64,000 bases of DNA, taken from positions 832,001 to 896,000 of the forward strand of contig OZ244650.1 in NCBI GenBank assembly GCA_965218785.1. The letters are read 5' to 3'. Shown one piece after another: positions 23,007-56,661 of the stretch (its first letter is position 1; each line of letters starts with the position of its first letter). The DNA comes from Nitrosopumilus sp. (GTDB lineage: Archaea > Thermoproteota > Nitrososphaeria > Nitrososphaerales > Nitrosopumilaceae). The notes beneath the pieces were generated by a model. That model saw nothing but the letters and a program-made list of their open reading frames with translations, made no database searches and had not been told where the DNA came from. Both the position numbers and the translations under genes were made by a program.

Positions 23007-23112
23007 GAACAGTGGGAGGCGCATTGTATTTGATATCAGTTTGGTCTTTTTTCATGCTTTTAGGGAGCGATTCAAAATACCCCCAACCGAAATTTTTAAT
23101 AGACACAAAAAT

Positions 23113-23140
23113 TCAATCTGGAGAAGATTCGTATTTCATG
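23113..23140 (+). repeat. 28-bp dispersed motif, copy A
   Basis: tcaatctggagaagattcgtatttcatg. Confidence 0.85.
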
Positions 23141-23182
23141 TCTACATCTCCATAATTTCAGTACCAAGCAATCAAAAACAAT

Positions 23183-23918: not shown

Positions 23919-24098
23919 ATGACTAGGTGGAAAAAAGATGCTACTGAATTCGAGGTCGGCGTGATCAATCTTACTAGCAGTAATGGACCTGCTTCAAAAA
24001 CATGTATAATTCCAAAACCGATATTTGAATTATTAAAAAGACCAACTCGATTAAAATTTAAAATCATTGGAAAAAGAATAGAGGTTCAAAGTGTTTAG
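23919..24098 (+). CDS. AbrB/SpoVT-like small DNA-binding protein (59 aa, below ORF-track cut-off)
   Basis: MTRWKKDATEFEVGVINLTSSNGPASKTCIIPKPIFELLKRPTRLKFKIIGKRIEVQSV; IPKPI..L....LKF swapped-hairpin pattern. Confidence 0.7.
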   Translation: MTRWKKDATEFEVGVINLTSSNGPASKTCIIPKPIFELLKRPTRLKFKIIGKRIEVQSV

Positions 24099-24340
<242 letters not shown>

Positions 24341-24344
<4 letters not shown>

Positions 24345-28188: not shown

Positions 28189-28536
28189 ATGTCGATACAT
28201 GGCATCTTTGAGAATCCACAAAAAAGTGTATTCTCTATAGAATATTATGATTCAACATGGGAGCATGACTATATGAAGGAATTAGAAAAAGACGACATTG
28301 TATCAAAATGGACTAAAAACCATGGGATAAGAATTCCATATCTTGCAGATGACAACAAGTACAAGTATTATAATCCGGATTTTCTAGTGGAAAGATCTGA
28401 TGGTACAATAGAACTAGTCGAGATGAAGAGTACCCATATGCTAAAAGCGACAAATACAAAAAGAAAAGCAGAATATGCCAAGAAATGGTGTGATGCCCGG
28501 AGTATTGAATATCGTCTCATTTCTAGATATCAATGA
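28189..28536 (+). CDS. PD-(D/E)xK endonuclease (TnsA-N-like / Res C-terminal nuclease domain)
   Basis: YDS.WE..Y...LE....V.KW.KN..IPY..YNPDFLV..LVEMK; same frame as res, directly after its TAA. Confidence 0.8.
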   Translation: MSIHGIFENPQKSVFSIEYYDSTWEHDYMKELEKDDIVSKWTKNHGIRIPYLADDNKYKYYNPDFLVERSDGTIELVEMKSTHMLKATNTKRKAEYAKKWCDARSIEYRLISRYQ

Positions 28537-28619
28537 AGGTAGTTGTATGTGTAAGATCAATATGGAATAACATGATACGGAATTGATATGGATGACTTGC
28601 TATTCAAAAGTCAAATATT

Positions 28620-28767
28620 GGAATCCGGAGAAAATTGATATTTCATGTTTATGCCCTCACAACTTGGTAGATTTCAGATTAAACACTCTCAGAAAGAGAT
28701 AGTGGATTTTGATAAATTTTAGTGATTTATAACACAAATCATGAAATACAGATCTTCTCCGAACTAC
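28620..28767. repeat. 28-bp motif copies B (+, 28620-28647) and C (-, 28740-28767), inverted pair
   Basis: ggaatccggagaaaattgatatttcatg and the reverse complement of gtagttcggagaagatctgtatttcatg. Confidence 0.85.
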
Positions 28768-28940
28768 ACTGTAATTTTACTAGATAATTTAACTGGGATC
28801 GTCTATGTTGAATTCTGCGGTTAAATTTTGGTGTTCAGATCATTATTTTACACTCGTGCGAGATAGTGATTGCACTCAAAAAGAGTACCCGAGAAGATTT
28901 GATATGAAAAAATTATAAATTAGTTATAGAATTATAAATT

Positions 28941-31900
28941 ATGAGCAGTATTTTCTCCGTTCGTGAAGACCATATCAATAATTTATCTCCAGAATATTGT
29001 GTACAATTATTCGGAGAATTACTCCATTCTGATGCTAGACGTCTCAAACTCTCTATATCTAAGGTTAATTTTACAACAAAAACTGTTCCTGATGGTGGAA
29101 TTGATGCTTCTATCGAAGATGGGATTTCTCAAGAGGGTGATCTGATAATTGATCCTGAATCTTTTTACCAAATTAAATCTGGAGAAACATTTTCTTCATG
29201 GCAAGAATCTGAAATCAAAGAAGAATTATTACATGGAAAACCTCCCATAAAACAAAATCTTGGTGATGAAGTTCAAAGATGTTTTGAACGAAACGGGACC
29301 TATATCTTAGTATGCATGAAAGTTCAATTGTCTACTCAACAAAAAAAACAATCTGAAAAAAATTTAATCAATGTTTTAACTGCATGTGGAATAGATAATC
29401 CCAAAGTCAAAGTATGGGGCCAAGACAAAATTATTGGTACAATTGCTTCATACCCTTCATTAGTTTTACGATTGACAAGAAAAGATGCTCCTGTCTTTCA
29501 ATCTCATCAGGATTGGTCAAATAATCATGACATGCAAAGAGAACTGGTACTTGGAAAAAAACAAAAGGACTTTATAAAAATAATTCAAGAAGCACTTCTT
29601 GATGATTCTGAAACTGTTCATGTACATATCTATGGTGAAACTGGAGTTGGAAAGACAAGACTTGTTTTAGAATCTACAAGAATTTCTTTCTTATGTCCTC
29701 TTGTGATCTATTGTTCATCTCCAAAAGAATTTCTTTCAAAATCACTGCTAAATGAAATTATTGCTGATAATAAGTTACATTGTATTTTGATTATTGATGA
29801 ATGTTACTATCTTGATCATTTAAACATATGGAATAAGTTGGCATCTCTTGGTTCTCGAATAAAACTTGTTACCATGTCTCACGAATATCGAAGAGTTGAT
29901 GAAACTACAAAGCAAAATGAAGCTCCAAATTTAGATGAATCACAAATTAAAGAAATTATTAAGAAATACCATGATGATGACATTTTGGCAGGTAGATTAT
30001 CAAGAATTTGTAATGGAATTCCTCGTTTGGCTCATATGATCGGATGGGATTTAAAAAATAATCCTAAAGAAATCCTTCGTGGTTCCCAAGATGTATTTGC
30101 ATTTTTTGACAGATATATTAACCAAGGAGAAGATCCTCTTTCAACACATGTGTTACAAAGAAAAAGAATTCTTTTAACAATTTCATTATTTAAAAAATTT
30201 GGAAGCATCACATATTTTCCTAATGAATTTAAGTCAGTACATGCGATTATTGAAGAGATAGATCCAAGTATTACATTACCAATATTTCTAGAACATGTAA
30301 AAGATTTACAAGATCGCAAAATTTTGCAAGGTCAGGAAACGTTGTATATTAGTCCTAAAGGATTGCATCTGTGGTTATGGATGGAGTGGTGGGAGTCTTA
30401 TCATGCATCAATTACATTTGAAAAATTAATCCAGATAATTCACCCTACTCTCAGAAAATGGTTCTTTACAATGTTTCAATATGCTGGTAATTCTGATGCG
30501 ACAAAAACTGTTGTACAAAAATTATTTAAAGACGGTGGCCCACTTTTAAATTCCGAATTCATAAAAACTAGTTTAGGTGCAGAGCTTTTTCATTCATTAT
30601 CTAATGCAGATCCTACAACTGCAACTGATTATCTTGAACGAACAATGGGAACATGGTCTAATAAAGAATTGTGTGATTTTTCAATAGGACGGAGATCCGT
30701 AATTTATGGGTTAGAAAGAATTGTTTTTGAGCCAGAACTCTTCACTCGGGGCGGTACACTTCTTAGAAGTTTGGCTGAAAATGAAAATGAAGAATGGTCA
30801 AATAATGCTACAGGGTTGTTTGCTAGCTTGTTTTCATTAGGTATCGGCTATGCTTCATTAACCAAAACCCCTCCTAAAATGAGACTTGCTTTGTTGAAAG
30901 AAACACTGTGTTCTGATAATGAAAATAGAAGAAATTTGGGGTTAAAAGCATGTGAATTTGCCTTAAAGACCGAGGATTTTTTATATCCTTCCGAACTGCC
31001 AGCAGATGAACTTAGAGTAGAACAAAAGGGTTGGGAACCAAAAATCAACCAAGACTGGGCTGATGCGTATAAATCCGTAATCGAATTAATTATTGAAAGA
31101 CTCCAAACATTTACAAATAAAGATAAGCAAAAATGTGCTTCGATGATCTCTCAAAACTCCAGATGGCTGTTTCATACATTTTCATTTATGGGAGAATACA
31201 TCGTAGAGAAATTATACCAGATTAAAAAATTTATTGACAAAGAAACCCTATTAGAAAATATTATTGATATTTTAGAATTTGAAAAAGATAGATTAACTCC
31301 AGAAACCAAATCAAAACTTGAGACACTTCAGATTGAAATTATTGGAACTGATTATTCTTCCCTTTTGAAAAGATATGTGGGGATGGATATTATGTTGGAT
31401 TTGGCAAACAAAGATCGTGAAAAAGAAAGGGTGGAACATATCCAAAAATTAGTTGAAATGTCGTTGAATACTGAAAAATTAAAACCAGAATTATCCTGGC
31501 TGACTACTGATAATGCGCGATATGGATACGTATTTGGACAAGAATTAGCAAAAAAAGATAATGATTTTTTATTACTGCCATTACTATTAGATGAACAAAG
31601 AAAAACTGATGAAAAAGGAACTGGTTTTTTCCTAAGCGGATATCTTGTAATTATTTTTGAAAAAAACCAGAAAAAATGGCTACAAATTATGAATGAAATA
31701 TCACAAGATCCTGAATTGATAAGATTTTTTACAGAAATAGCATGGAGATCTGGGATTACTGATGAAATTGGATTATTAATATTGAATCTGATAAAATCTC
31801 AAAAAATTAAAATCGATGAATTGGATAAATTTACTTTGGGTGGAGCTGTAAACAGACTCTCTGAAAAGGTGGTGTTAGAATGGATTGAATATATGATAGA

Positions 31901-32687
31901 TACTAATGAACAAAAGACAATTTTTAGCGCTATTTCATTGTATGATGCCTTCTTTGTATATAGAGCTGAAAAAACCTTGAATCCTGAAATCACCTTAAAA
32001 CTCTTAACACATGATGTTTTCATGGGGAGAACACCTGTTCGAACATATACCATGGTGGATTACCACTGGAACGAAATAGGTCTGAGATTCATTCAGCAAT
32101 ACCCTGATGAATCTCTTGAATTTGCTGATAGATTGTTGGCAAGTATGGATAGTGAATCATCTCTTATTTCTCCTCATTCACAATCTTTGGAGGTATTGGA
32201 TACTGTTGCTTCTAGATTACCAGATGAAGTATGGGATTTAATGACTAAATACATTGCATTACCTTTTGATAAACGTGGATATGCTATAATTAATTGGATG
32301 CGGGGTAATCTATTTGCACCATCGAATAACTTTCTAGATAAGGTTGATTTTCAAAAAATTTTGGATTGGATTGATAATAATCCTCATAAATTGGCACCAT
32401 ACATTATTGAACATGTACCACCAATTCTGACCTTTGATAGTTTAGCCAGAAAACTCCTAGTAAAATATGGAACTGAAAAAAGTGTAAAAATATCCCTTGT
32501 TGCAAACTTTTCTACCGAAGGATTCTCTGGATCAGCCTCAACTCATTTCCAAGAAAAGAAAGAAAAATTACTTGTTTACAAAGAACATGATGATAACGAA
32601 AATGTGAAAAACTGGATTGATTTCTATGTAAAATGTTTAGATGAGGATATTAATCGTGAAAAATTACAAGAAGAAAGGGAATTCTAA
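28941..32687 (+). CDS. Avs-like antiviral STAND protein: N-terminal PD-(D/E)xK nuclease, P-loop NTPase, long helical sensor
   Basis: PDGGIDA..YQIKSG; GETGVGKT (Walker A); ILIIDE (Walker B); CNGIP (GxP); 1248 aa, very AT-rich. Confidence 0.7.
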   Translation: MSSIFSVREDHINNLSPEYCVQLFGELLHSDARRLKLSISKVNFTTKTVPDGGIDASIEDGISQEGDLIIDPESFYQIKSGETFSSWQESEIKEELLHGKPPIKQNLGDEVQRCFERNGTYILVCMKVQLSTQQKKQSEKNLINVLTACGIDNPKVKVWGQDKIIGTIASYPSLVLRLTRKDAPVFQSHQDWSNNHDMQRELVLGKKQKDFIKIIQEALLDDSETVHVHIYGETGVGKTRLVLESTRISFLCPLVIYCSSPKEFLSKSLLNEIIADNKLHCILIIDECYYLDHLNIWNKLASLGSRIKLVTMSHEYRRVDETTKQNEAPNLDESQIKEIIKKYHDDDILAGRLSRICNGIPRLAHMIGWDLKNNPKEILRGSQDVFAFFDRYINQGEDPLSTHVLQRKRILLTISLFKKFGSITYFPNEFKSVHAIIEEIDPSITLPIFLEHVKDLQDRKILQGQETLYISPKGLHLWLWMEWWESYHASITFEKLIQIIHPTLRKWFFTMFQYAGNSDATKTVVQKLFKDGGPLLNSEFIKTSLGAELFHSLSNADPTTATDYLERTMGTWSNKELCDFSIGRRSVIYGLERIVFEPELFTRGGTLLRSLAENENEEWSNNATGLFASLFSLGIGYASLTKTPPKMRLALLKETLCSDNENRRNLGLKACEFALKTEDFLYPSELPADELRVEQKGWEPKINQDWADAYKSVIELIIERLQTFTNKDKQKCASMISQNSRWLFHTFSFMGEYIVEKLYQIKKFIDKETLLENIIDILEFEKDRLTPETKSKLETLQIEIIGTDYSSLLKRYVGMDIMLDLANKDREKERVEHIQKLVEMSLNTEKLKPELSWLTTDNARYGYVFGQELAKKDNDFLLLPLLLDEQRKTDEKGTGFFLSGYLVIIFEKNQKKWLQIMNEISQDPELIRFFTEIAWRSGITDEIGLLILNLIKSQKIKIDELDKFTLGGAVNRLSEKVVLEWIEYMIDTNEQKTIFSAISLYDAFFVYRAEKTLNPEITLKLLTHDVFMGRTPVRTYTMVDYHWNEIGLRFIQQYPDESLEFADRLLASMDSESSLISPHSQSLEVLDTVASRLPDEVWDLMTKYIALPFDKRGYAIINWMRGNLFAPSNNFLDKVDFQKILDWIDNNPHKLAPYIIEHVPPILTFDSLARKLLVKYGTEKSVKISLVANFSTEGFSGSASTHFQEKKEKLLVYKEHDDNENVKNWIDFYVKCLDEDINREKLQEEREF

Positions 32688-32894
32688 TGTAATTTATTGA
32701 ATTTGAAAAATTAATTCTCCCATATCCAATCCTTTCCGGTAATCTGGAAACCTACTAGCATTAGAATCTGTATAATTAAATTTTTAATTGTGTTTTTGAT
32801 GATTTCTCTAATGTAATGATGGTTTTTCTGTTCTCAAATAATCTTATGTGAGTAAAAAATGAAATTTAGATGGCATTGGGAACGATCTTATCGA

Positions 32895-33011
32895 TGAATC
32901 TAAAGAAGATCTATATTTCATGTTTCATTTCTGGCATTAGATAACTTTAGAGCCACGAAGTGGATGCTGTCTAATGATCGAGATCTGAAATCACGATCTT
33001 CTCCTGATTGA
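32895..33011. repeat. 28-bp motif copies D (+, 32895-32922) and E (-, 32984-33011), inverted pair
   Basis: tgaatctaaagaagatctatatttcatg and the reverse complement of tcaatcaggagaagatcgtgatttcaga. Confidence 0.85.
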
Positions 33012-33127
33012 AGCTTTGTATTTATTCTGCAATACATTTCGTTAAGATTCTCTTTATAATGAGGTAAACGATCTGGAAGAGGGTCTAAATTAAATACTGG
33101 CAAAATAAAGTCCCAATGCATGAGTAA

Positions 33128-33235: not shown

Positions 33236-36200
33236 TTGAGTGCCGTCCGAGACGGCGCATTTGAGATGGTATTAAAGAAGATAAGAACAGGATCCAAGAC
33301 TCCTGTAGATCTTGGCATTAAATTTGAAAAGATCATGTTTGATTTTTTTAAAACCGACAGCGTATACAAAAAACGATTTCAAAAGGTCTGGATGTGGAGT
33401 GACTGGGCTAGAGATAACAAGATCAAAGAAGAACTTGGAACTTCTCATGACCTAGGGGTAGATATCGTAGCTCAAGAATATGGCGGTACACTCTGCGCCA
33501 TCCAGTGCAAGTGTTATGACGATGACAATACACTTGGCAAAGAGGATATCGATAGTTTTATTGCAGCAGGAAAATCATATCATCTCTCCAACTATGTGCT
33601 GGCTTGTACAGGACCAATCAACGATAACGCAATGGCTATGCTAAGGGGTGTAAGATGCAATATAATCACAAAGCAACACCTAAAAAACAGCAGTGTAGAC
33701 TGGTCAGAGTACCCAAAGATTAAATCAAAAAAACCCAAGAAACTACGGGATTATCAACAGTTTGCAATGACTGATGTGGTACAAGGTTTTGAGAAATCAT
33801 CAAGAGGCAAGATGATAATGGCATGTGGTACGGGCAAGACGTTTGTATCATTAAAAATTGCTGAAAAACTGGCAGGCAAGGGAGGTATAGTTTTGTATCT
33901 GGTACCCTCGATCTCTTTGATTCTACAAAGTATGAGGGAATGGTCTGATAACTCTGGCATTCCACACTATTACATGGCAGTATGCTCGGACAAGAGCATC
34001 AGAAATTCAGAGAATGGAACCTTGACTGAATTGGAGACTCCGGCATCAACTGATATAACAGAACTATCAGAGAAACTGGCAAAAATATCCAACAATACCA
34101 TGAACGTGATTTTTTCCACATATCACTCAATCGAGGTAGTCATGAGCGCCATGACTGACAAAAAGTTTGATCTCATACTGTGTGATGAGGCTCACAGAAC
34201 TACGGGAATTGGAGATACAAAAAAAGAATCATTTATGACCATGGTTCATCATGAGCACAACATAAAATCCAAACGACGACTCTACATGACGGCAACCCCA
34301 AGAATATACACAGATATCATCAAAGCCAAGGCACAGCAAAAGGAAAAAGTAATCATCTCAATGGATGACGAATCTCTTTATGGTTCGGTCTTTCATAATC
34401 TGAGCTTTTATGATGCTGTCCACAAGTATCATGCCCTGTCTGATTTCAAAGTACGCGTAGCCATCATGGATGGTGATACCATGAGTAGAATGATCCAGCA
34501 TTCTACTGCCAATGATGAAAATCTGGTTCCACTAAATGAAAAAACATTGATGGCATCCGTATGGCATGCTTTGGAGTATCCTGGGAGTGGGGATGAAAAA
34601 GAGTTGCTACAGCGAGTTATAGTGTTTTGTGACATGATAAACTCATCCAAACTGTTTGCAGGAGAGGAACTGGTATACAAAAAAGACATTCGTGAAGATC
34701 CTGAAAAACTGGGTAAATCCAGAGAGATTGACAGGTATAGATCATTTGGCAAGGTAGTCGAGCATATCCAAAAGATAAAAAATGATCCTGATTCTACCAA
34801 ATCTGAAGTAAGGCACGTGGATGGGGGCGACAATGCCCAGAGACGGCGGCGGGAACTTGACTGGCTTCGAGACAGCCAGGATGATCCGAGCACATGCCGG
34901 ATTCTATCAAACGCCCGATGTTTATCTGAAGGCATAGATGTTCCCTCTCTGGACGGCGTAGTATTTATGAATCCGCGAAAATCAGTTGTGGATGTGGTGC
35001 AGGCTGTTGGTCGAGTCATGCGCCGATCGCCTGGAAAAGAATACGGATATGTTATACTTCCTGTTGCCATACCTGCCGGCATCAAAGTCGAGGAAGCCCT
35101 CAGTGACAGTAAACATTTCAAGGTGGTGTGGCAGGTACTCAACGCACTTCGATCCCATGATCCAAATCTTGCCGAAGAGATTAATCGACTGATACTGGAG
35201 AGACCCAATCCCAATGACAATGAGATAACAAACAGGATAATAATCAGACATGCAAACAGCCACAATCTCTATTCCCTTGACATGCCTGCTGATAAAATGA
35301 TAGAGGGTATTACTACCAAGCTTATTGAAAAGGTCGGTGACATTAATTATTTTGACAGGTATGGTCAAAAACTCGGGGATGCATCACATACAATCGAGGC
35401 AAGAATCAAAAATAAAATAGATTCATCTGATTCAATAAAAAACGAGATCGGACAGTTCCACGATTCCCTCAAGAATATGATAAATGACTCCATTACAATT
35501 GACTCTACAACACAGGTCATAGCACAGCATATCGTACTGTCAAGAGTTTTTGATGCGTTGTTTCAAGGCGAGTTTACATCACATAATCCAATATCCATCG
35601 AGTTTGATAAGATTGCAAAGAAACTGGGGTTAAAAGAAGAGCTTGAGGATCTAGAGGGATTCTATGATGACGTAAAAACAGAGTTAAAGGAGATAAAGAG
35701 CAGAGAGGCAAGACAGAATTTTATTAAAAAGATTTATGGAAACTTTTTTGAGAGTGCCAACAAAAAGGAAACAGAACAACACGGTGTGGTGTATACTCCT
35801 GTGGAACTGATTGATTTTATCATTAACAGTGTACAGTATCTCTTAAAGAAACACTTCAAGACGGAATTCAACCAGAGAGCGGTAAAGGTACTAGAACCGT
35901 TTGCTGGGACGGGCACATTTATCACCCGACTCTTGGAATCTGGTCTGATCACCGACAACCTGTATGAAAAATACAAAAATGATTTGTATGCAAATGAGCT
36001 TATTTTGCTGGCATATTACATTGCAACAGTAAACATAGAGACTACATATTCGAGTCTCCGAAAAGGTGGAAGATACGTTCCGTTTGATGGGATTAGTTAT
36101 ACAGATACACTACGGATAAATCCACAGTACCGGGATGATGAACGTCATAGACATGAAAAGACTACACTTGATGAGATATTCGAGATAGCTCATAAGAGGA

Positions 36201-37969
36201 TACGGCATCAGAGAGGAATCCATGTTCATGTACTTATGGGAAACCCACCGTATTCGGCAAAACAAAGCGACTATAATGATCAAAATCCGAATGTTTCATA
36301 TCCTGAATTAGATAAACGAATAGAAAATACCTATGTAAAAAAATCAAATGCAACCCACAAAGGTTCACTTTATGATTCCTATATACGCGCCATTCGTTGG
36401 GCATCTGACAGAATTGGCAAGTCGGGAATAATCGCGTTTGTCACAAACGCTAGTTTTATACGATCAGAGACAGCAGCAGGAATACGTGCCTGCCTTGCAG
36501 AGGAATTCAATGAGGTATGGTGTTTTGATTTGAGAGGAAATCAAAGAACTCAAGGTGAAGTTTCAAAGAAAGAAGGGGGCAAGATATTTGGTTCTGGTTC
36601 ACGTGCCCCCGTAGCAATAACAATCCTAATCAAAAACCCAAAAAAGAATGATTGCACCATACATTACAAGAATATTGGTAATTATCACAACAGAGAGAAA
36701 AAGTTGGAGATAATAAAAAATACAAAATCTGTACAAGGAATACGAGATTGGCAAGCAATAACCCCTGATAGACACAATGATTGGCTTGACCAGCGCGGTG
36801 ACGAGTTTTCAAAGTATATGTCTATTGGAAACAAGAATGTCAAGACAGGTAAAAGTGGAAGTGCTATATTTAGAATGTATTCACGTGGAATAGCAACAGA
36901 TCGTGATGTGTGGGCATATAATTCATCTGAAAAAGAATTATCAAATAACATGAAGTGCCATATTAATTATTGTAATAATCAAAATCCAGATAACCCCGTC
37001 ATCAATCCAAAACAAGGTAAATGGAGTAGAGGATTACGTAGTAAAATTAAAACAATTAAACCAAAATTTGAACAAAATAAAATTAGAATTGCTTTATACA
37101 GACCATTTTTCAAACAATATCTCTATTATGATTCTACAAGAATTTTTAACGAAGAAGTTTCTCAAATACCTAAATTCTTCCCAGAAAATTATTCAAAAAA
37201 CCTGATCATCATATTACCATACAAATCTACTGTATATTTTTCTACATTTGTAACTGATATTACACCTGATCTTAATATAATTACTGCCAATCAATGTTTC
37301 CCGCTATACACATACGAAAACAAAAAAGACAAGAAAATCAATATTATTGATTCCATACTACAACAATACCAGACACATTATAACGACAAAAAAATAACCA
37401 AAAAAGACATCTTCTACTATACATACGGCATCCTGCATCATCCAGCATACAAAAAGAAATTTGCAAACAATCTCATTAGAGAACTGCCGAACATACCAAT
37501 GGCTCCAGATTTTTGGAAGTTTTGCAATGCAGGAGAAAAACTAGTTGACTTGCATCTGAATTTTGATTCATGTAATAAATACAGTCTTGGTAAACCAAAA
37601 CATAAATTCAATAAATTCACAAAGATCTCATTTGGAACAAAAAAGCTCAAAAAAGATGGCAGAGACAAGACAGTATCGGATAAAACAAGACTCCGCATTG
37701 ATGGTGTCGAGATATTTGACAGTATACCGGAGATAAAATATTCAGTAAACGGAAGGACCCCTTTGGAGTGGATAATAGATAGGCACCGTATTACGACGGA
37801 CAAAGACAGTGGAATTACAAATGATTCCTGTTCTGGAGTTGACATTATATCAGTAATAAAGAGAGCCGTACATGTGGGAGTAGAATCTGATAAAATAATA
37901 TCACAACTGCCTAAAGAATTTGAACCAAAGAACTGGACTCCTGCAAAGACAGGTCTTGACAAATTCTAA
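33236..37969 (+). CDS. Type ISP restriction-modification enzyme (Mrr-like nuclease + SF2 helicase + N6-MTase + TRD; LlaBIII/LlaGI-like)
   Basis: DLGVDIVA..IQCK; MACGTGKT; DEAHR; LEPFAGTG; GNPPY; DLRGNQR; YRPF; 1577 aa. Confidence 0.92.
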   Translation: MSAVRDGAFEMVLKKIRTGSKTPVDLGIKFEKIMFDFFKTDSVYKKRFQKVWMWSDWARDNKIKEELGTSHDLGVDIVAQEYGGTLCAIQCKCYDDDNTLGKEDIDSFIAAGKSYHLSNYVLACTGPINDNAMAMLRGVRCNIITKQHLKNSSVDWSEYPKIKSKKPKKLRDYQQFAMTDVVQGFEKSSRGKMIMACGTGKTFVSLKIAEKLAGKGGIVLYLVPSISLILQSMREWSDNSGIPHYYMAVCSDKSIRNSENGTLTELETPASTDITELSEKLAKISNNTMNVIFSTYHSIEVVMSAMTDKKFDLILCDEAHRTTGIGDTKKESFMTMVHHEHNIKSKRRLYMTATPRIYTDIIKAKAQQKEKVIISMDDESLYGSVFHNLSFYDAVHKYHALSDFKVRVAIMDGDTMSRMIQHSTANDENLVPLNEKTLMASVWHALEYPGSGDEKELLQRVIVFCDMINSSKLFAGEELVYKKDIREDPEKLGKSREIDRYRSFGKVVEHIQKIKNDPDSTKSEVRHVDGGDNAQRRRRELDWLRDSQDDPSTCRILSNARCLSEGIDVPSLDGVVFMNPRKSVVDVVQAVGRVMRRSPGKEYGYVILPVAIPAGIKVEEALSDSKHFKVVWQVLNALRSHDPNLAEEINRLILERPNPNDNEITNRIIIRHANSHNLYSLDMPADKMIEGITTKLIEKVGDINYFDRYGQKLGDASHTIEARIKNKIDSSDSIKNEIGQFHDSLKNMINDSITIDSTTQVIAQHIVLSRVFDALFQGEFTSHNPISIEFDKIAKKLGLKEELEDLEGFYDDVKTELKEIKSREARQNFIKKIYGNFFESANKKETEQHGVVYTPVELIDFIINSVQYLLKKHFKTEFNQRAVKVLEPFAGTGTFITRLLESGLITDNLYEKYKNDLYANELILLAYYIATVNIETTYSSLRKGGRYVPFDGISYTDTLRINPQYRDDERHRHEKTTLDEIFEIAHKRIRHQRGIHVHVLMGNPPYSAKQSDYNDQNPNVSYPELDKRIENTYVKKSNATHKGSLYDSYIRAIRWASDRIGKSGIIAFVTNASFIRSETAAGIRACLAEEFNEVWCFDLRGNQRTQGEVSKKEGGKIFGSGSRAPVAITILIKNPKKNDCTIHYKNIGNYHNREKKLEIIKNTKSVQGIRDWQAITPDRHNDWLDQRGDEFSKYMSIGNKNVKTGKSGSAIFRMYSRGIATDRDVWAYNSSEKELSNNMKCHINYCNNQNPDNPVINPKQGKWSRGLRSKIKTIKPKFEQNKIRIALYRPFFKQYLYYDSTRIFNEEVSQIPKFFPENYSKNLIIILPYKSTVYFSTFVTDITPDLNIITANQCFPLYTYENKKDKKINIIDSILQQYQTHYNDKKITKKDIFYYTYGILHHPAYKKKFANNLIRELPNIPMAPDFWKFCNAGEKLVDLHLNFDSCNKYSLGKPKHKFNKFTKISFGTKKLKKDGRDKTVSDKTRLRIDGVEIFDSIPEIKYSVNGRTPLEWIIDRHRITTDKDSGITNDSCSGVDIISVIKRAVHVGVESDKIISQLPKEFEPKNWTPAKTGLDKF

Positions 37970-38308
37970 TGTAAAGAAATATCAATCAAAGATATGACAT
38001 ACGAATTAAACTAAATATTACAAAGAAATTTCTAAATGTTCCATGCAAAGCTCTCCAATGTTTCTGAATGAAAGACAATAGTATGTGGAATCAAAGATAT
38101 TGTAAGGAGATCCTGATTTTTCAAACATCTATCAATAGCAACGGCACTTAATTTGATATATTATTGAAAAGTCATGTTGATTTAATCATGTGAATAAAAC
38201 CTCTTGATTCATCTCTGGGTTCTGTAAGAAATATTGCTAAAAGGAAGATTGGAATATGACGGATGAGGTAAGCAGGATCCTATGACTGCGTCATAGCCCA
38301 TAGATCGT

Positions 38309-38336
38309 CCAATTTGGAGAAGATCGTTATTTGGAA
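38309..38336 (+). repeat. 28-bp motif copy F
   Basis: ccaatttggagaagatcgttatttggaa. Confidence 0.75.
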
Positions 38337-38424
38337 TAAAATTTTGCAAAACACCCTAACTTTACAGCGCAGTCAAAATATCCACAACTTACCAGAGCGA
38401 TAAAAGAGAAAGTTTAACTGTATT

Positions 38425-40704: not shown

Positions 40705-41505
40705 ATGAGTAACAAAGAAAGTGATACAAATGAAGAAAATATGGATGTGAATAATACTGACAGAGATGAAGATAGCTATGAATGGGGGCAGGAACCTTTC
40801 TCATCTGCACAAAATGAATATAATCCTCTAGTATTAATTGAAGAAAATAAAATGTTACTATCAAAGTTGAAAATGGATCACTCTGAAGTTAAATTGGCTT
40901 CAAAAAACATAATTAATCCATTATACAGTATATCCGTGGTATTTCTTACCCTGTTTGGAATTGGTACATATTTTTCAGGTCTGGACCATAATGCACTGGG
41001 TTTTGAAATTTCTTTTATTATCGGAATACTCTTAATTTTAGCCGTTGGTTCAATTCTTCTAGTCTTTTGTTCTTTACAAAAGACATCCAACCCCAAACAT
41101 GATGAATTGAGGAAAAATATAGTCTACTACCAGAAAAAAATGCTCGAAACTGGATCATACATTCGTAAATACTATGCCAGCCATCCCAGATCAAACTCAA
41201 AGGTATTTACAGAGTTCTCTGACTTTCAAAACACACTTTACTCTGCAAGTATTTTTTTGATATCTTTCAAGTCTGAGAAAGTGTATAATAAATTAATTTA
41301 TGATTTAGATGAGAAAAATCTGAAAGATGGCAAAAATAATACTCGGGCAGATTCGAGAAAAATTCAAAAAATACTTGATGCCTATATTGTATCTAATGAA
41401 GAATACTGTAAAATATTACGTAGGCAACTAGGTGGAATTGAGGTTCGTTTGCAGAAAGCGATAACTGAACTAGGCGGCGGTTCTGAGAAAAATACGGAGA
41501 AATAA
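40705..41505 (+). CDS. Hypothetical two-TM membrane protein (266 aa)
   Basis: Two hydrophobic helices at ~aa 70-125; acidic N-terminus; AT-rich. Confidence 0.65.
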   Translation: MSNKESDTNEENMDVNNTDRDEDSYEWGQEPFSSAQNEYNPLVLIEENKMLLSKLKMDHSEVKLASKNIINPLYSISVVFLTLFGIGTYFSGLDHNALGFEISFIIGILLILAVGSILLVFCSLQKTSNPKHDELRKNIVYYQKKMLETGSYIRKYYASHPRSNSKVFTEFSDFQNTLYSASIFLISFKSEKVYNKLIYDLDEKNLKDGKNNTRADSRKIQKILDAYIVSNEEYCKILRRQLGGIEVRLQKAITELGGGSEKNTEK

Positions 41506-47079: not shown

Positions 47080-47346
47080 GTAAATTATTTTTCCTTAAAA
47101 ACGTTATTTAACTGCTCGCTTCATTGGTATGGCTGTTATCATTTCTCTTGGCTGGTATCTCAATGTGGGTCGTCTTTTGGCACGATATCATATGCAGATC
47201 CAAACAAATCTCAAACCAGTATCGTTTTTCGATGTTTCATCATAGGCACCATTAGTTGGGGATGAATAAAACCCCTAGCTTTTTTCATGTTTATAGAGGA
47301 TAATTCAGAATTCTACAAAGTTAGAATTTCAGACAGGCGGAATTTT

Positions 47347-47374
47347 TCAATCCGGAGAAGATCGTGATTTCATG
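47347..47374 (+). repeat. 28-bp motif copy G
   Basis: tcaatccggagaagatcgtgatttcatg (25 of the first 26 nt identical to copy E). Confidence 0.85.
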
Positions 47375-47652
47375 TCTGATTCAGGCATTAATTCCATATC
47401 ACGATGATGTTACAGAACCTGGAAGATAAACAAATATTCATTTGGTCTTGGAATATTATACAATGTTTACAATAATGAACAAGGTGATATCTGAATATTT
47501 TAGGTTAACAAAATTCAGGTGGGATACTGCCAGTTATTTTTAAAAATCCTGCAAAAATCTTCAGGAACTTGAGCACCGCCGGTGTAAATGATCACACATC
47601 AATTGCTTTCCATATCGAAAATAATTTTAAGTAGGTCTGGTTTGCCTTAATC

Positions 47653-51125: not shown

Positions 51126-51192
51126 TCTCCGTACGGTAAAAACAAGCCGGTGATTTAAAACGTTATATAATCAGACCGTCTTAAAGTACGAA

Positions 51193-51994: not shown

Positions 51995-52207
51995 ATGGGA
52001 ATTGTCTCAAAAGGAGCAAAATGCAATGTTGAGGGATGTGACAAGGACGGCGCCCGATCCCTGAATACAACCAGGGTTGAAAACGCGGGACTGCGAGTAA
52101 ATTCCACAGGCAAGAAAACCGTTCTCTGCAAGGAGCACTATAAGGAGTGGAAGAAGGAATCCAAAGATGACCGGGAACTTGAACGTGCCAGATTTGACAA
52201 GTTTTAA
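51995..52207 (+). CDS. Small conserved archaeal zinc-binding protein
   Basis: C.V.GC..A.RS..LCKEHYKEWKK. Confidence 0.8.
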   Translation: MGIVSKGAKCNVEGCDKDGARSLNTTRVENAGLRVNSTGKKTVLCKEHYKEWKKESKDDRELERARFDKF

Positions 52208-53292
52208 TCTCTCTTGATTCTGGCTCCATCCGTAGGATTCTCAAAGTAATCCCTGCTTAGTTTGTCATATAACGCCCCTAATTTTTTATACAGCCTTTTT
52301 GGTTTGCGTGTTTTTTGGTTGCTTAGCACGTATAACGCAAGAATGGGAAACGCAATTGTCGCATCTGCGTATACGGTTACCATTCCCTTATGCGCGTCTT
52401 GAACCTTGCCCCAGCTTTTCCCCTCCTGTAGTGTCGCACCAGACAGTCCCCCGGTGTCTGGCCGTGCATCAGTGATTTGTATTATGTAGTCCTGCCCCCC
52501 GTCGTCCCTTCTTAAAATCTGATCTAGTAGCGGGCCTGTCTGCTGTGCCGTATTTTTTGGAACGCCCCCGCCCAGCTCTACGATTCCTGATTTTTTCGAA
52601 TCATAGATAATTGCGGCCTGCTCGATAATCTCCCTGACAAAATCCAGATTGTATGCCTTGCCATGTAATCTGTGAACTGCCAGATTCAGTGCCAGCGATG
52701 AATCCTTTATCGTTGAGACGTACACCGGAACATCATATTCGTATGCAGCAGTGACAAAACTTTTCTCCGGATGTTTTGCGTGCTCCTTGCTCATCTTTCC
52801 CATCAGATTACAAAATTCCGCCGTTGTAAACGGCTTTTCTGGAAAATCCCCGCCAAACATCTTTTGAATGGCCTGATCTTCTGCTTCTAGCGTCTCGTAA
52901 AATTTTATGTATACGTCTCTAATCCGAACAATCTCGTTTTGATACAGCTTCATGTCATCCACATCGGAGCTTCCCTGCTTTATGGGCAGACCCCGGGCAA
53001 AGTGATCCTCGTGATATACATTTGCCCCCGTCGTGATGATCCAGTCAACAAAGCCCCTTTCAATTAACGTCTTGATTATTCCTCCAAAACCCACCGGCGT
53101 CATCGCCCCTGAAACTGTAAGGCAGATTGTGGCATCCTCTTTTATCATCCTTGCAAAAAGCTTTGCAGCCTCGCCAAGACTCCTTCCGTTAAATCCTGTG
53201 GCTGCAAACACATCAACCAAGTCCTCGATGGTCATATCCGGATCTAGTTTTATGTGCGGGATGTCTTTTCCATGAAATTCATGCTGGTTCAC
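52204..53292 (-). CDS. dys: Deoxyhypusine synthase
   Basis: IITTGAN, LGGGVPKN, DTGGLSGATLQEGKSWGK, YADATI. Confidence 0.93.
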   Translation of the reverse strand: MNQHEFHGKDIPHIKLDPDMTIEDLVDVFAATGFNGRSLGEAAKLFARMIKEDATICLTVSGAMTPVGFGGIIKTLIERGFVDWIITTGANVYHEDHFARGLPIKQGSSDVDDMKLYQNEIVRIRDVYIKFYETLEAEDQAIQKMFGGDFPEKPFTTAEFCNLMGKMSKEHAKHPEKSFVTAAYEYDVPVYVSTIKDSSLALNLAVHRLHGKAYNLDFVREIIEQAAIIYDSKKSGIVELGGGVPKNTAQQTGPLLDQILRRDDGGQDYIIQITDARPDTGGLSGATLQEGKSWGKVQDAHKGMVTVYADATIAFPILALYVLSNQKTRKPKRLYKKLGALYDKLSRDYFENPTDGARIKRD

Positions 53293-53494
53293 TTTTAAAA
53301 AACAGCTTTATGCTGTAAATAATACTTGCGCAGGGATATGGGATTAATTGAGGTTCTGGGTATTTAGTGATGACATACAAATCATGAAATATGGATCTTC
53401 TCCAAATTGGATTTCATCTGACTTTTGCTTCCCGTTGAATGATTTTGAGGAAATTGTTCTTTTTAGACCTTGTTGGTGCATTTTGGTAATTCAT

Positions 53495-53536
53495 GACTCA
53501 TGAGTTTCGGGGGTTCAAATCCCTCTCTATACGCTA
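53495..53536 (+). pseudogene. 3' fragment of a long-variable-arm tRNA (Ser/Leu type)
   Basis: gactc-at-gagtt hairpin, T-arm ggggg-ttcaaat-ccctc, 7-nt acceptor strand, then gcta; no 5' half found. Confidence 0.55.
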
Positions 53537-53792
53537 GATCCCGATAACTTCAGTAACCCTCAAGATGTATTATTGGTGTCTGCCTGCATCCTATTCTCAG
53601 ATAATGGTTCGTGTTTTGTGGTACAAAACGGCAGGAAAAAATGCAGGTAAATGGAACGTGTAATCTTGCCTGTTTGAAAGATGGATTTTGACCAAAGACA
53701 TCGTGCTGGCTAACTCCAGACCATGCCATCCACAGACAATCAGAAGGCGGAATATTGACAATCTTAAAAACAAGGCAGGATACACCAGAATC

Positions 53793-54002
53793 ATGGAGAC
53801 AAGAAAATTCACCATACAGGTGATTAAATCATCAGAAGGTGGATATACCGGAAGATGCATTGAGTTGCCTGCAGCAATTAGTGAAGGGGATACAATGGAG
53901 CAATTAGAAACAAACATGAAAGAAGCTGTTCAACTAGTTCTAGAATACATTGAAGAGAAAACAAAATCAGATCAGAAGATAATCATAGAGATTCCAAATT
54001 GA
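53793..54002 (+). CDS. hicB: HicB-family antitoxin
   Basis: GGYTGRCIELPAAISEGDT.EQLE.NMKEAV. Confidence 0.88.
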   Translation: METRKFTIQVIKSSEGGYTGRCIELPAAISEGDTMEQLETNMKEAVQLVLEYIEEKTKSDQKIIIEIPN

Positions 54003-54107
54003 GTCTCAGAAACCACAATTGGCTAGATGTTGTAAAGGCATTAAGCAAGTTCAGTTATTGTGTAGACAGGCAAAGAGGTAGCACTATGAGATGTTTGCCG
54101 ACATGAT
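53999..54107 (+). pseudogene. hicA: Truncated HicA toxin
   Basis: LSLRNHNWLDVVKALSKFSYCVDRQRGS, then loses the GSH His (ggtagcact) and terminates. Confidence 0.7.
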
Positions 54108-54341
54108 ACGTGCGATATCAGTTTTTCAGGACAGGAAGATTTGATCTTGACGTGATGGATATGTTGCACGAGAATCAATTATCCCAAAAACTTTTGATCG
54201 TCACTATAAATGGATTGAATCAGTAAGACACAACTTTTAGCAGATGCATACGATACAAAAGATCCTAGTCGATTATATGAAAGTTTCAAACAATTGCGTT
54301 ATATTACAACACCATATACTGAAACGTACGGCGGATAAAAC

Positions 54342-54746
54342 ATGATAAAACCACATATAGAAAAAACTGGAATAGAACAGGATATTTCTAGATTAGACTG
54401 TATAAGAAAAGAATTTCAAAATTCCACACATATTAATTCAGATGACTTTGCGTATCTGGGACTTGAATTATGCGGTTTGGTAGAAAGATTATTGGAAAAT
54501 AATGATGAGAAAATACAACAAATGATGGAAAGTTACGGTCTAGTCCAAATACAAGAAAATACCGGTAAAGACAACTTTGATTTAGATAAAGAAAGTGTTA
54601 AAAAAATAATATTAAAAGAAATTAGTATTGGTCAAATATTTTATCCAAGTGAGATATCTGATGAATATAATTTGGATCTAAAAATGGTAATGGATGTGAT
54701 CTCTGAATTAAAAGAAAATAAGCAAATCATTGAAAATATAGATTAA
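54342..54746 (+). CDS. Hypothetical protein with C-terminal winged helix
   Basis: FYPSEISDEYNLDLKMVMDVISELKENKQI. Confidence 0.6.
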   Translation: MIKPHIEKTGIEQDISRLDCIRKEFQNSTHINSDDFAYLGLELCGLVERLLENNDEKIQQMMESYGLVQIQENTGKDNFDLDKESVKKIILKEISIGQIFYPSEISDEYNLDLKMVMDVISELKENKQIIENID

Positions 54747-54944
54747 CATGTCAACTCATTATAGTACAATGATTCCATAAAAGGTGAACGTATTGTATGT
54801 AGTTCAGAAAAATGAAACAAAAATACCCATGACCGGAAATCAGAGGTACATGATAATTTCTGGAAAGATCCATATTTCATGATTGTATGTCAGATCATTA
54901 TAACGCACCAGACTCCTAACTGGGATGGATTTACTTATGTATGA

Positions 54945-55301
54945 ATGAGACATACTGATGTCGTGATAATCATTGATCTGCATGATCCCCGGCGTGTGGG
55001 AAAGACCCCTGATGATGTCAGGGTGCTGGTCTCTTCGGGGGATTTTCTTCAGGATGAATTTAAAATCTCCAAGGTGGAACTACGCCTTTACTTGGAGGGA
55101 ACCGATGAAAAATTAGGGGATTATTCGCTGATAACATCCTTTGTTGAAACTGACAGGGGCTCCATTGAAATGATTTATGATGAGGGATTCCGCGGCAAGG
55201 ACTCCCTTTTACGTGCGGCAGAGTTTCTCACTTCCAGTCTGGGAATATCCGGCCTGATTTTACGCTCGGTGATCTCCCTGCGTGAAAAAACCGGGAATTG
55301 A
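54945..55301 (+). CDS. Conserved hypothetical protein
   Basis: Clean 118-aa ORF with core-like composition. Confidence 0.7.
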   Translation: MRHTDVVIIIDLHDPRRVGKTPDDVRVLVSSGDFLQDEFKISKVELRLYLEGTDEKLGDYSLITSFVETDRGSIEMIYDEGFRGKDSLLRAAEFLTSSLGISGLILRSVISLREKTGN

Positions 55302-55364: not shown

Positions 55365-55944
55365 CTAAAGTATGTCAATACAGGCTCCCGTGAAACGCTT
55401 GCGGCCATGCGTCTGGTGCCGTATGTAGGTCTCTTCAAACCAGTCTTCCTGACAGTTTTTGTGACGGTAGGATCTATCTGAATGACTCGGTCTTGGATTG
55501 TGATGTAGTTTGTTGCGAGATAATCCTACATAGGACACCGACTTTCTTGTGCTTGTCTTTTTCATAATTATACTGGCCACAGTCATCTTATCCTTCCCTC
55601 CAACGTTTTTTTAAAAGCGTCTATGACTGGTCTGCTCACATATGATTCTCTTGAGGGTTTCATTCTCCTTTTGTAGCACGCGTTCTGGGCTCTGTTTGGC
55701 GGTTCCGATTACAGACATCTTGCCACCGTTGATGAACTTCCCCCTCCACTGATAGAATGTCTGGGGATGTATGTTGTACTTGCGACACAGTTCTGCCGTG
55801 CTGATCCTGGTGTTTATGGATTCCAGGATGATTCTTGCCTTTTCCTGTGGGGTGAATTTGCTCTTTACCATTGGTGTTTTACCTCTTAACCTGCTCAAAA
55901 AGTGTATGTATGCAAGCGGTCTCATTCTAGCGGGGTCCCCACCA
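55365..55944 (-). mobile_element. Truncated IS3-family element (left end, orfA, start of orfB)
   Basis: 5'-TGGTGGGGACCCC end; MVKSKFTPQEKARIILE..AELCRKYNIHPQTFYQW..LQKENETLKRII (HTH_Tnp_1 type). Confidence 0.88.
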
Positions 55945-56019: not shown

Positions 56020-56256
56020 TCATTTTATGTATCCATTGTTATAATCACGGGTAAATTTATCCCTGGTTATATTCACATCTTGCAATATTGCTAAAATCAT
56101 CCCTGTTTTTAAGATGTGATTGCCTGCCGATACAGTTGTAAAAAGATCATTGTGCCTTAATGTTACATGACTACCTTTTCTACTTTTTATAAAAAATCCT
56201 TTTCTAATCAAATATTTAATCATGGTGTTGCCAGAAATTTTGGGAATTTTTTTCAA
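56020..56256 (-). CDS. hicA: HicA-family toxin
   Basis: KIPKISG..MIKYL..KGF....RKGSHV.L..G.ILAIL. Confidence 0.88.
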   Translation of the reverse strand: MKKIPKISGNTMIKYLIRKGFFIKSRKGSHVTLRHNDLFTTVSAGNHILKTGMILAILQDVNITRDKFTRDYNNGYIK

Positions 56257-56462
56257 AATTTTTGGATTATATTCAAATTAAAATTATTTCGTTTATCTTC
56301 CGCTGCAAGTTCTATTGCCTCTTTCATGTTTTCCATTACTTCTTTATACGTCTCACCTTGTGAGTTGGCATGTAATTTGTTACATCTGCCAACAAATCCT
56401 CCATCATCCATGTCTTTAGTTATTACAACCGTGTAGGTTTTTTTCTGTATCAATGAACTCAA
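56253..56462 (-). CDS. hicB: HicB-family antitoxin
   Basis: GGFVGRCNKLHANSQGETYKEVMENMKEAI; 4-nt overlap with hicA; TTG start assumed. Confidence 0.88.
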   Translation of the reverse strand: MSSLIQKKTYTVVITKDMDDGGFVGRCNKLHANSQGETYKEVMENMKEAIELAAEDKRNNFNLNIIQKF

Positions 56463-56605
56463 TGTATACACAACTGTATACGCATATGGAATTATTAAAG
56501 GTATAGTTAGTTTAGGCGTTGTCCGTAAATTCACAAAAATCGCCAATTACGAGGCATCATAACCCATCAATGTCCTTGGATTTCGTGCCGATTCCTCATT
56601 CCAAA

Positions 56606-56661
56606 TGGTGGGGACCCCTCAGAATGAGACCGCTTGCATACATACACTTTTTGAGCAAGTT
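56606..56661 (+). mobile_element. Isolated left end of the same IS3 family
   Basis: tggtggggacccctcagaatgagaccgcttgcatacatacactttttgagca, near-identical inverted copy of 55888-55944. Confidence 0.85.

Follow-up and report, generated by a model that had tools for sequence, protein, structure and literature searches.

A candidate transposase-less cassette with IS6-like inverted ends between dys and a conserved hypothetical gene of a Nitrosopumilus-like archaeon

An insertion with matched inverted ends in a divergent promoter region

We analyzed a 64-kb stretch of DNA from a Nitrosopumilus-like archaeon (hereafter the window; overall GC 41.6%), which includes core genes such as those for Alba, RpoK, ribosomal protein S26e and an archaeal-type threonyl-tRNA synthetase (ThrRS), and we focused on a 1.57-kb segment of it, 53350-54916, that a first-pass annotation had proposed to be a cassette without a transposase. 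To its left lies dys, the core gene of deoxyhypusine synthase (52204-53292, minus strand; Pfam DS, E 1.3e-80), and to its right a conserved hypothetical gene of 118 amino acids, hyp118 (54945-55301, plus strand), which is divergent from dys in relatives and has a tblastn match adjoining dys in 72 of 80 loci; both flanks had been named correctly in the annotation. The 80 loci were kept out of 110 found via dys, all of them from Nitrosopumilaceae, and their deoxyhypusine synthases share 72-90% amino acid identity with that of the window. The order conserved in these relatives is arginase - ThrRS - hyp118 <> dys - Zn-finger gene - cyclophilin-like gene <> rpoK. The edges of this and of the other inserted segments described below were defined by comparison with the relatives' loci.

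The annotation had suggested looking for an empty site in relatives, and such sites are common. Among the 72 loci that have both genes, on which all gap counts rest, the starts of dys and hyp118 lie at most 200 bp apart in 61, 347-412 bp apart in six and 746-1405 bp apart in five, compared to 1652 bp in the window. The inserted piece has a GC content of 34.6%, as against 44.6% and 47.1% in the flanking core genes. Empty sites contain two promoter-like blocks, one beside each gene, and both are kept in the window, where, read by eye, they end about 17 nt (dys side) and about 13 nt (hyp118 side) outside the tips of the terminal repeats described below. Because the 8-50-nt spacer between the two blocks in relatives does not align, the breakpoints cannot be placed more finely; since the blocks resume 13-17 nt outside the tips, the breakpoints coincide with the repeats within about 8-50 nt. 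They do not lie away from the repeats, which is the outcome that the annotation had named as contrary to its proposal. Taken together, these results demonstrate that the segment is an insertion of foreign composition into the divergent promoter region between dys and hyp118. The 11 of 72 relatives with larger gaps hold unrelated genes at the site, such as a gene for an SDF-family symporter or a rhodanese-like gene. In loci L023, L065, L066 and L068 (about 1.4 kb) and L031, L035, L049 and L062 (about 0.4 kb), one or the other of these genes stands between hyp118 and dys without repeats.

The two ends of the segment are inverted copies of each other. Significance was judged by the local alignment score against shuffled sequence, and the reverse-complemented left end aligned to the right end with a score of 55 (500 shuffles: 16.7 +/- 2.5, maximum 30); nothing else in the window matches the left end as well. 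The end sequences quoted in the annotation were present at their window positions and its matched inverted ends were borne out, whereas the length of about 40-50 bp that it gave them was too short: with gentler gap costs, the repeat extends to about 80 nt, in which several indels occur and identity is about 80% (score 71; shuffles 20.4 +/- 4.1, maximum 39). Compared to what was annotated (limits 53363 and 54900), it gains 13-16 nt on the outer side and about 25 nt on the inner side. The left terminal inverted repeat, as given by this alignment, is 53350-53425 (minus strand) and the right one is 54837-54916 (plus strand); within them, nhmmer placed a conserved core of about 31 nt at 53377-53413 and 54851-54887, respectively. 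The core reads TTCAATCC GGAGAAGATC, then three variable bases, then ATTTCATG. At the outer tips, the left end has GGTTCTG on the plus strand (53352-53358), and the right end finishes in ...CCAGACTCC at 54916, with two mismatches to the tip heptamer CAGAACC; its reverse complement, GGAGTCTGG, is one base longer than the left tip. In addition, a central spacer inside the core is CCAT in both ends, and it is TCGT, TGAT, CTGT, CTAT, CGTG, CGTG and CGTT in the other seven copies of the core that the window contains. The two ends are therefore a matched inverted pair with a common spacer, the cognate pair that the annotation had seen in them.

Genes and relics inside the segment

Two of the cargo genes belong to a toxin-antitoxin pair that is no longer intact. 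A hicB-like antitoxin gene (53793-54002, plus strand, 69 aa) matches Pfam HicB_lk_antitox at E 3e-4 and 21.4 bits, below the gathering score of 27, and a tblastn search on the cassette DNA found its product to be 35% identical (E 5e-9) to a second HicB encoded in the window. It is followed by a broken hicA (53999-54237, plus strand), of which a 35-aa N-terminal fragment (53999-54106) matches positions 1-21 of the 58 in the Pfam HicA_toxin profile (E 0.013). The remainder of hicA is in another frame; a three-frame reading gave two in-frame TGA codons, and with X at these stops the remainder had no Pfam match. The segment thus carries hicB next to a truncated and frameshifted hicA rather than an intact adjacent HicAB pair, and the annotation was right about both genes. 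The second HicB belongs to an intact hicA/hicB pair at about 56020-56546, which lies between 52-nt inverted repeats (55888-55939 and 56610-56661, 88% complementary). These repeats correspond to the 5' end of a fragment of an IS3-type OrfA gene (55611-55925), a further inverted copy of which is found at 2192-2460, so that the second pair is a toxin-antitoxin pair framed by insertion sequence (IS) ends of a different family.

The third gene, an open reading frame (ORF) at 54342-54746 on the plus strand that we call ORF134, has 20 homologues, none of which is functionally named (two are labelled 'hypothetical protein' by JGI and the others are unnamed). The annotation had described it as a winged helix-turn-helix (wHTH) gene; it is a conserved hypothetical gene, and the label is weaker than was stated. 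Its match to Pfam MCM_WH_arc has an E-value of 0.69, and Atlas matches to wHTH clusters score no higher than 0.87. A structural model built from 11 sequences reached a predicted local distance difference test (pLDDT) score of 65, and the protein folded alone gave an unusable model (pLDDT 51). Foldseek returned no PDB matches for the former model at E <= 0.001, only local matches of about 50 residues to wHTH domains with root-mean-square deviations of 1.5-3.6 A. The C-terminal 50 or so residues of ORF134 are possibly a winged-helix DNA-binding domain.

Upstream of hicB, a stretch of about 26 nt at 53508-53533 (plus strand) resembles the T-arm and 3' acceptor of a tRNA, at a score below the Rfam gathering score. 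With an E-value threshold, Rfam matched 53508-53525 to the 3' end of tmRNA (E 0.029), and on the opposite strand it matched 53486-53533 to a tRNA-like plastid UTR family (E 5e-4; 30.7 bits, where the gathering score is 68). ARAGORN found no tRNA at this position and no full tRNA gene in the window, and none of the tRNA genes in the 80 loci of relatives matched the stretch. Of the tRNA fragment named in the annotation, the likeness to a T-arm and acceptor end has held up and the tRNA itself has not; the stretch may, on weak grounds, be the relic of a tRNA 3' end.

The tRNA-like piece raises the question of whether the segment came in within an integrative element that targets tRNA genes by means of a tyrosine integrase, the piece being a relic of the attachment site (att) and the inverted repeats incidental. 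Such a history would account for the stretch at 53508-53533, and tRNA genes are the target of 57% of thaumarchaeal integrated elements according to a published survey (PMC6563490). The likeness of the stretch to tRNA falls below every curated threshold, however, the target was a promoter region and not a tRNA gene, and neither an integrase nor a full tRNA gene nor a direct att repeat is present in the window. No relative with the same cargo beside intact tRNA and integrase genes was seen in the 80 loci. We consider the chance that the segment arrived in this way to be very slight.

As the annotation had noted, the segment contains no transposase: its ORFs matched no transposase or recombinase family in Pfam, NCBIfam or PADLOC, and tblastn with IS6-type transposases was negative. 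The same three collections, applied to all ORFs of the window, gave no transposase or recombinase family, the exceptions being the unrelated IS3-type OrfA fragment mentioned above (HTH_Tnp_1) and a lone TnsA-like N-terminal endonuclease domain in a type III restriction-modification (RM) cassette.

The end family in the window and beside IS6-type transposase genes

The core of the terminal repeats is not confined to this segment. A 17-nt piece of it, allowing up to three mismatches, has five matches in the window, compared to 0.66 +/- 0.87 expected, and none of 100 shuffled sequences reached five; a looser search and a repeat finder brought the number of clear copies to nine. A profile built from these nine recovered them at E 4.9e-10 to 9.2e-6, values that are circular since the same copies made the profile, and its next match was at E 0.34. 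Eight of the nine copies are placed either at the junction of two cassettes or no further than about 80 nt from an edge of an inserted segment. In an 18.5-kb island, convergent core pairs at 28627(+)/28760(-) and 32902(+)/33004(-) separate three units, with 38316(+) after the third, and each unit encodes a single defence system. The first has type III RM with a TnsA_N-like endonuclease (24341-28536), the second a PD-Lambda-4_A-like protein of 1248 aa (28941-32687) and the third a type ISP/IIG RM enzyme (33236-37969). The cargo genes of all three units, as well as those of the dys-hyp118 cassette, are on the plus strand.

Of the left end of the type III RM cassette (24077-24117, minus strand), only an outer portion is present, 39 nt that match the corresponding portion in the left end of the dys-hyp118 cassette. 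A (GACA)17 microsatellite at 24137-24204 stands in place of its inner part. The right end of this cassette is at 28615-28696 (plus strand, core copy 28627) and has a degenerate tip. About 7 nt away from it begins the left end of the PD-Lambda-4-like cassette (28704-28772, minus strand, core copy 28760), a distance read by eye. The right end of the latter (32890-32954, plus strand, core copy 32902), whose tip ...AGAGCC finishes at 32954, is in turn followed by the left end of the type ISP RM cassette (32962-33016, minus strand, core copy 33004; GG tip 32962-32963), the two GG tips being 7 nt apart (32954 and 32962). The right end of the type ISP cassette is at 38304-38370 (plus strand, core copy 38316), with a tip of approximate position. 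Two further ends are the right end of a 2-kb insertion between a DUF2203 gene and a 76-aa core gene (23108-23165, plus strand, core copy 23120), whose tip CAGTACC is 17 nt from the stop codon of the core gene, and a solo end (47342-47420, plus strand, core copy 47354, tip CAGAACC at 47413-47419) in the island between rpoK and the cyclophilin-like gene. The core of the solo end, 47342-47382, is the ninth copy; it lies about 230 nt inside that 4.1-kb island. These results demonstrate that the end family bounds other inserted, transposase-less segments of the same window.

The pairing of ends is clearest in the dys-hyp118 segment, which makes it fair that the annotation called it the clearest single cassette. 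The inverted pair of the type ISP unit scored 34 against a shuffle maximum of 31, that of the PD-Lambda-4-like unit scored 41, inside the shuffle range (maximum 52), and the ends at 47354, 23120 and 28627 had no significant inverted partners. The spacers of paired ends are alike: they differ by 0, 1 and 1 nt in the three cassettes, compared to a mean of 2.22 over all 36 pairs, and only 0.8% of random triples of disjoint pairs did as well (permutation fraction 0.008).

An arrangement of this kind also recalls integron cassettes, small promoter-poor units without a recombinase that follow one another in a single orientation and are separated by imperfect palindromes. We considered whether the repeats are halves of integron-type attC sites, or whether they serve regulation or structure without being mobile, as a terminator, operator or small RNA would, and accompany acquired genes. 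The one-stranded cargo and the convergent repeat pairs between units are compatible with either, and integrons have been described in Archaea (10.1101/2022.02.06.479319). In contrast to integron cassettes, the R''(RYYYAAC)/R'(GTTRRRY) signature of attC was absent from both strands of all four regions tested, no integron integrase was found in the window, and the dys-hyp118 cassette has single outward-facing ends, a half-site at either side, where an integron cassette has one whole attC. As for a regulatory repeat, RNAalifold predicted 0 pairs for the core, Rfam had no match to it at the gathering score, and it is not oriented towards the adjoining genes in the consistent way expected of a terminator or promoter. 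Both versions strike us as highly improbable.

Other interpretations of the core as a functional element were rejected in the same way. An RNA element is contradicted by the lack of Rfam matches at the gathering score in the whole window, with sub-threshold matches only on 53250-55000, and by the RNAalifold result. Inspection by eye removed a C/D-box sRNA, whose boxes and spacing do not fit, and a small ORF, given that the short ORFs are not conserved among copies. A scan for sigma-70 promoters and terminators is inapplicable to an archaeon and was ignored.

Outside the window, the core profile has only two matches in the 80 relatives' loci at E <= 0.01, in L034 and L054, and both lie near transposase genes. 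In L034, the core begins 3 nt past the stop codon of an ORF of 190 aa (13321-13893) that matches Pfam DDE_Tnp_IS240 at E 4.8e-14; its product has 224 relatives, several of them named IS6 or IS1/IS6 family transposases, with lengths up to 333 aa, the upper bound of that search. In L054, about 2 kb separates a core copy from another IS6-type transposase gene, and a DNA methylase gene (two ORFs) and an HNH endonuclease gene occupy the interval 1311-2805 between the transposase gene and the solo end; this arrangement may be an IS with captured cargo. A third locus, L069, has a degenerate core copy after a degraded transposase pseudogene. It is thus in relatives that the same ends are joined to a DDE transposase of the family (L034 and, in degenerate form, L069), and not in the window. 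We rejected the idea that the core is the coding 3' end of a transposase, as the C-termini of full-length-type relatives stop before the core. In addition, with the core discounted, the similarity of the ends into the L034 coding region does not rise above that of shuffled sequences.

The tips of the ends may point in the same direction. The heptamer CAGAACC, with up to one mismatch, occurs within 75 nt outward of the core in five of 11 ends, compared to 10.2% of background windows (P 0.003). Ends of the IS6 family have been described as having GG tips, a G at position 7 and cTGTt and caaa motifs (PMC7986276, PMC6807381). The left tip of the dys-hyp118 cassette, GGTTCTG, has the GG and the G at position 7 and lacks TGTT, and its right tip has the GG with one extra base; the ends in L054 and at 47413 in the window also show CTGT. 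Judged by sequence, the end is linked in a relative to the 3' end of an apparent IS6-type transposase gene and has IS6-like GG...G7 tips. Consistent with a family of this kind in these hosts, IS6-family elements of about 1.2 kb, one of them 1206 bp, are listed for Thaumarchaeota in a supplementary file (PMC6563490, supplementary file 4).

The attachment of the core to a DDE transposase gene in L034 also bears on the possibility that the core is the site of a site-specific recombinase, as in a dif-like module or an invertible segment, with cassettes shuffled or inverted between spacer-matched cores. The core does have conserved arms around a variable 4-nt centre, paired ends have the centre in common, and inverted sites surround cargo that has no transposase and includes a toxin-antitoxin pair. 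Xer-dependent dif modules of Acinetobacter plasmids are comparable: they are transposase-less, have short inverted sites with a variable centre and often carry toxin-antitoxin pairs. A Xer/dif site, however, consists of 28 bp with two inverted arms of about 11 bp and a centre of about 6 bp, and the core contains no Xer-type dyad, its best arrangement having 6 of 8 complementary positions and no 11-nt arms. Furthermore, no recombinase gene was found in the window, and the similarity of the ends, unlike that of dif modules, runs far past the core to IS-like tips. A recombinase site is, in our estimation, very unlikely.

Several observations concern the surroundings of these ends. The outer tip of left-type ends occurs a third time, as AATTGAGGTTC on the plus strand at 41436-41446, either within a 266-aa ORF or at its end; it is not followed by a core and could be another degraded end or a chance match. 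The 4.1-kb island that holds the solo end contains genes for carbonic-anhydrase-like, Nramp-like, HTH and nucleotidyltransferase proteins and is surrounded by two copies (47096-47111 and 51155-51170) of a 16-nt promoter block common to rpoK and the cyclophilin-like gene, which is single in most relatives. The same block is doubled, with the same variant base, around unrelated islands in L056 (12124-12139/19397-19412; 7.3 kb) and L006 (12118-12133/16401-16416; 4.3 kb). The doubled block could be an old att, a target duplication or the mark of a shared hot spot. At the other side of the window, 3526-20154 is a very large gene or gene array with NHL and Ig-like (Big_12) repeats, a 138-nt periodicity and 48% GC, split into ORFs of 1323, 111, 327, 85 and 3564 aa.

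A candidate mobile insertion cassette and its implications

Mobile insertion cassettes (MICs) consist of passenger genes between inverted repeats derived from an IS or a transposon and are moved in trans, as described for the TnXax1-type cassettes of Xanthomonas and for those of Bacillus cereus (PMC4337579). The explanation that we favour, and hold to be moderately probable, is that 53350-54916 is a non-autonomous cassette of this type, in which inverted IS6-family ends of about 80 nt enclose hicB, hicA in its present broken state, ORF134 and a small relic of tRNA-like sequence as passengers. An IS6-type DDE transposase, encoded elsewhere in the genome, would bind the 31-nt subterminal core and would cleave at the GG tips, and the cassette would have moved in trans via the replicative cointegrate route of the family, with resolution by homologous recombination. 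Taking the ends to be those of an IS6-type IS provides a mechanism for the cassette that the first-pass annotation did not have; that the ends are IS6-like is, as far as sequence comparison can tell, the new point. The present copy would be old and probably inert: its ends are about 80% alike with indels, its hicA is broken and any target duplication has decayed or never existed.

A number of observations weigh against this explanation. A profile search found the end repeats absent from the sites of the 11 relatives with larger gaps; as these hold unrelated genes without repeats, the dys-hyp118 site is also variable for other reasons. The link to an IS consists of one truncated transposase gene, one degenerate pseudogene and one case at a distance of 2 kb. 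The L034 transposase is truncated at its N-terminus (190 aa compared to about 330 aa in full-length relatives), the 64-kb window lacks the cognate transposase gene, and a full-length IS with these ends was seen neither there nor in the 80 relatives' loci. At six of the 11 ends the tip occurs only in a version with two mismatches, and the distance from core block to tip heptamer, 11-36 nt, is odd for catalytic geometry. The inverted repeats of the IS6 family are given as 15-20 bp (longer in archaea, at least 18 bp) and its target duplications as 8 bp (PMC7986276 and PMC6807381), whereas the similarity here extends over about 80 nt with its best-conserved part subterminal. The duplication that a MIC or an IS6-family element would be expected to leave is missing as well, in agreement with the annotation: there is no perfect duplication at the cassette, 8-mers beside the GG tips agree in no more than 5 of 8 positions, and the only perfect direct repeat is the 6-mer TGGGAT, offset by 7 and 4 nt outside the tips. 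The dys-hyp118 cassette is known from a single copy. Finally, the region upstream of the L054 transposase gene contains no core and does not resemble the end family. The core may therefore be confined to one IS end, in which case the cassette would be bounded by two right ends.

The last of these points, together with the missing duplication, fits a different history, in which the ends were left behind by two full IS copies (a pseudo-compound transposon) or by two independent insertions, later deletion removed the transposase genes and the segment never moved as a unit. IS6 elements typically form pseudo-compound transposons according to a review of the family (PMC7986276), the core has so far been found only at the transposase-distal 3' end, and the window does contain solo or partial ends (47342-47420 and 24077-24117). 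Against this history, tblastn of two IS6-type transposases on the window at E <= 10 found no remnant, only two chance-level matches (E 1.5 and 5.5). Both deletions must also have stopped at the same 80 or so nucleotides, and the core is kept at both ends of two further cassettes. Furthermore, the pseudo-compound transposons of the family are stated in the same source to be always flanked by direct repeats, whereas the ends here are inverted, and paired ends have their spacer in common. We regard this history as unlikely.

The likeness to MICs extends beyond the single segment. Inverted repeats shorter than 100 bp, whose end sequence also abuts the L034 transposase gene, flank hicB, the hicA fragment and ORF134, and the cassette itself encodes no transposase. 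One genome holds several cassettes that differ in cargo, toxin-antitoxin genes among it; some cassettes are in tandem clusters, and solo ends occur too. Tandem MIC clusters and solo ends have been described in Xanthomonas (PMC4337579). Unlike in those examples, whose parents belong to the Tn3 family or are Bacillus IS, the parent here would be an archaeal IS6-like element, in a thaumarchaeal host; a complete defence system is the cargo of each of three neighbouring cassettes, and no target duplication or second copy attests to transposition. With regard to the IS6/IS26 group, the likeness may include the tips with GG and G7, and it is seen in the DDE transposase of the IS240/IS6 Pfam type at the same end sequence in a relative, and in the existence of transposase-less derivatives with both ends. 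Those listed in ISfinder as MITEs (transposable elements of the miniature inverted-repeat type), MITEBth2 and MITEHarch3, are 227 and 336 bp long and without ORFs (PMC7986276 and PMC6807381), whereas the elements here are 1.6-5.4 kb long and carry genes. The compound structures of IS6/IS26 consist of direct IS copies, again unlike the inverted ends of the present cassettes, and the expected 8-bp duplication was not found at the dys-hyp118 cassette. Casposons of family 1, which are known from Nitrosopumilus, are similar in genus and in having terminal inverted repeats, and they differ in their 13-bp duplication, fixed target and terminal motif, as well as in encoding cas1 and polB, which are lacking here (PMC8464041). 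A casposon does not fit in other respects: no Cas1 family is represented in the ORFs of the window and no 13-15-bp duplication exists at the cassette. On sequence grounds, the best reading is that the dys-hyp118 cassette and the three nearby defence units are transposase-less cassettes of a kind known in bacteria.

If this is extended to other archaea of the Nitrosopumilus type, they might possess a transposase-driven cassette system, in which single defence systems or toxin-antitoxin pairs between long IS6-like ends are moved in trans and stacked end to end, as with the tips about 7 bp apart at two junctions of the window, into defence islands. The dys-hyp118 cassette would be the smallest, decayed member of such a system, and the matched spacers would mark lineages or serve the pairing of ends. 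We put this wider proposal forward tentatively, as a possibility that is more doubtful than the reading of the single cassette. Searches for similar DNA returned one 37-nt chance-level match in a phage collection and none in a plasmid collection. According to a 2019 survey of integrated elements of Thaumarchaeota, no passenger-carrying transposons had been found in archaea (PMC6563490), and a literature search, covering sources in part, found no paper describing such cassettes in Thaumarchaeota. The 31-nt core together with an IS-like tip provides a search key for the parent IS, for other cassettes and for their cargo in genomes and metagenomes. If the interpretation is true, the assembly of part of the defence island of this genome would be explained, and ammonia-oxidising archaea would gain a simple, integrase-free route by which toxin-antitoxin pairs and whole restriction or defence systems could pass between sites and genomes.

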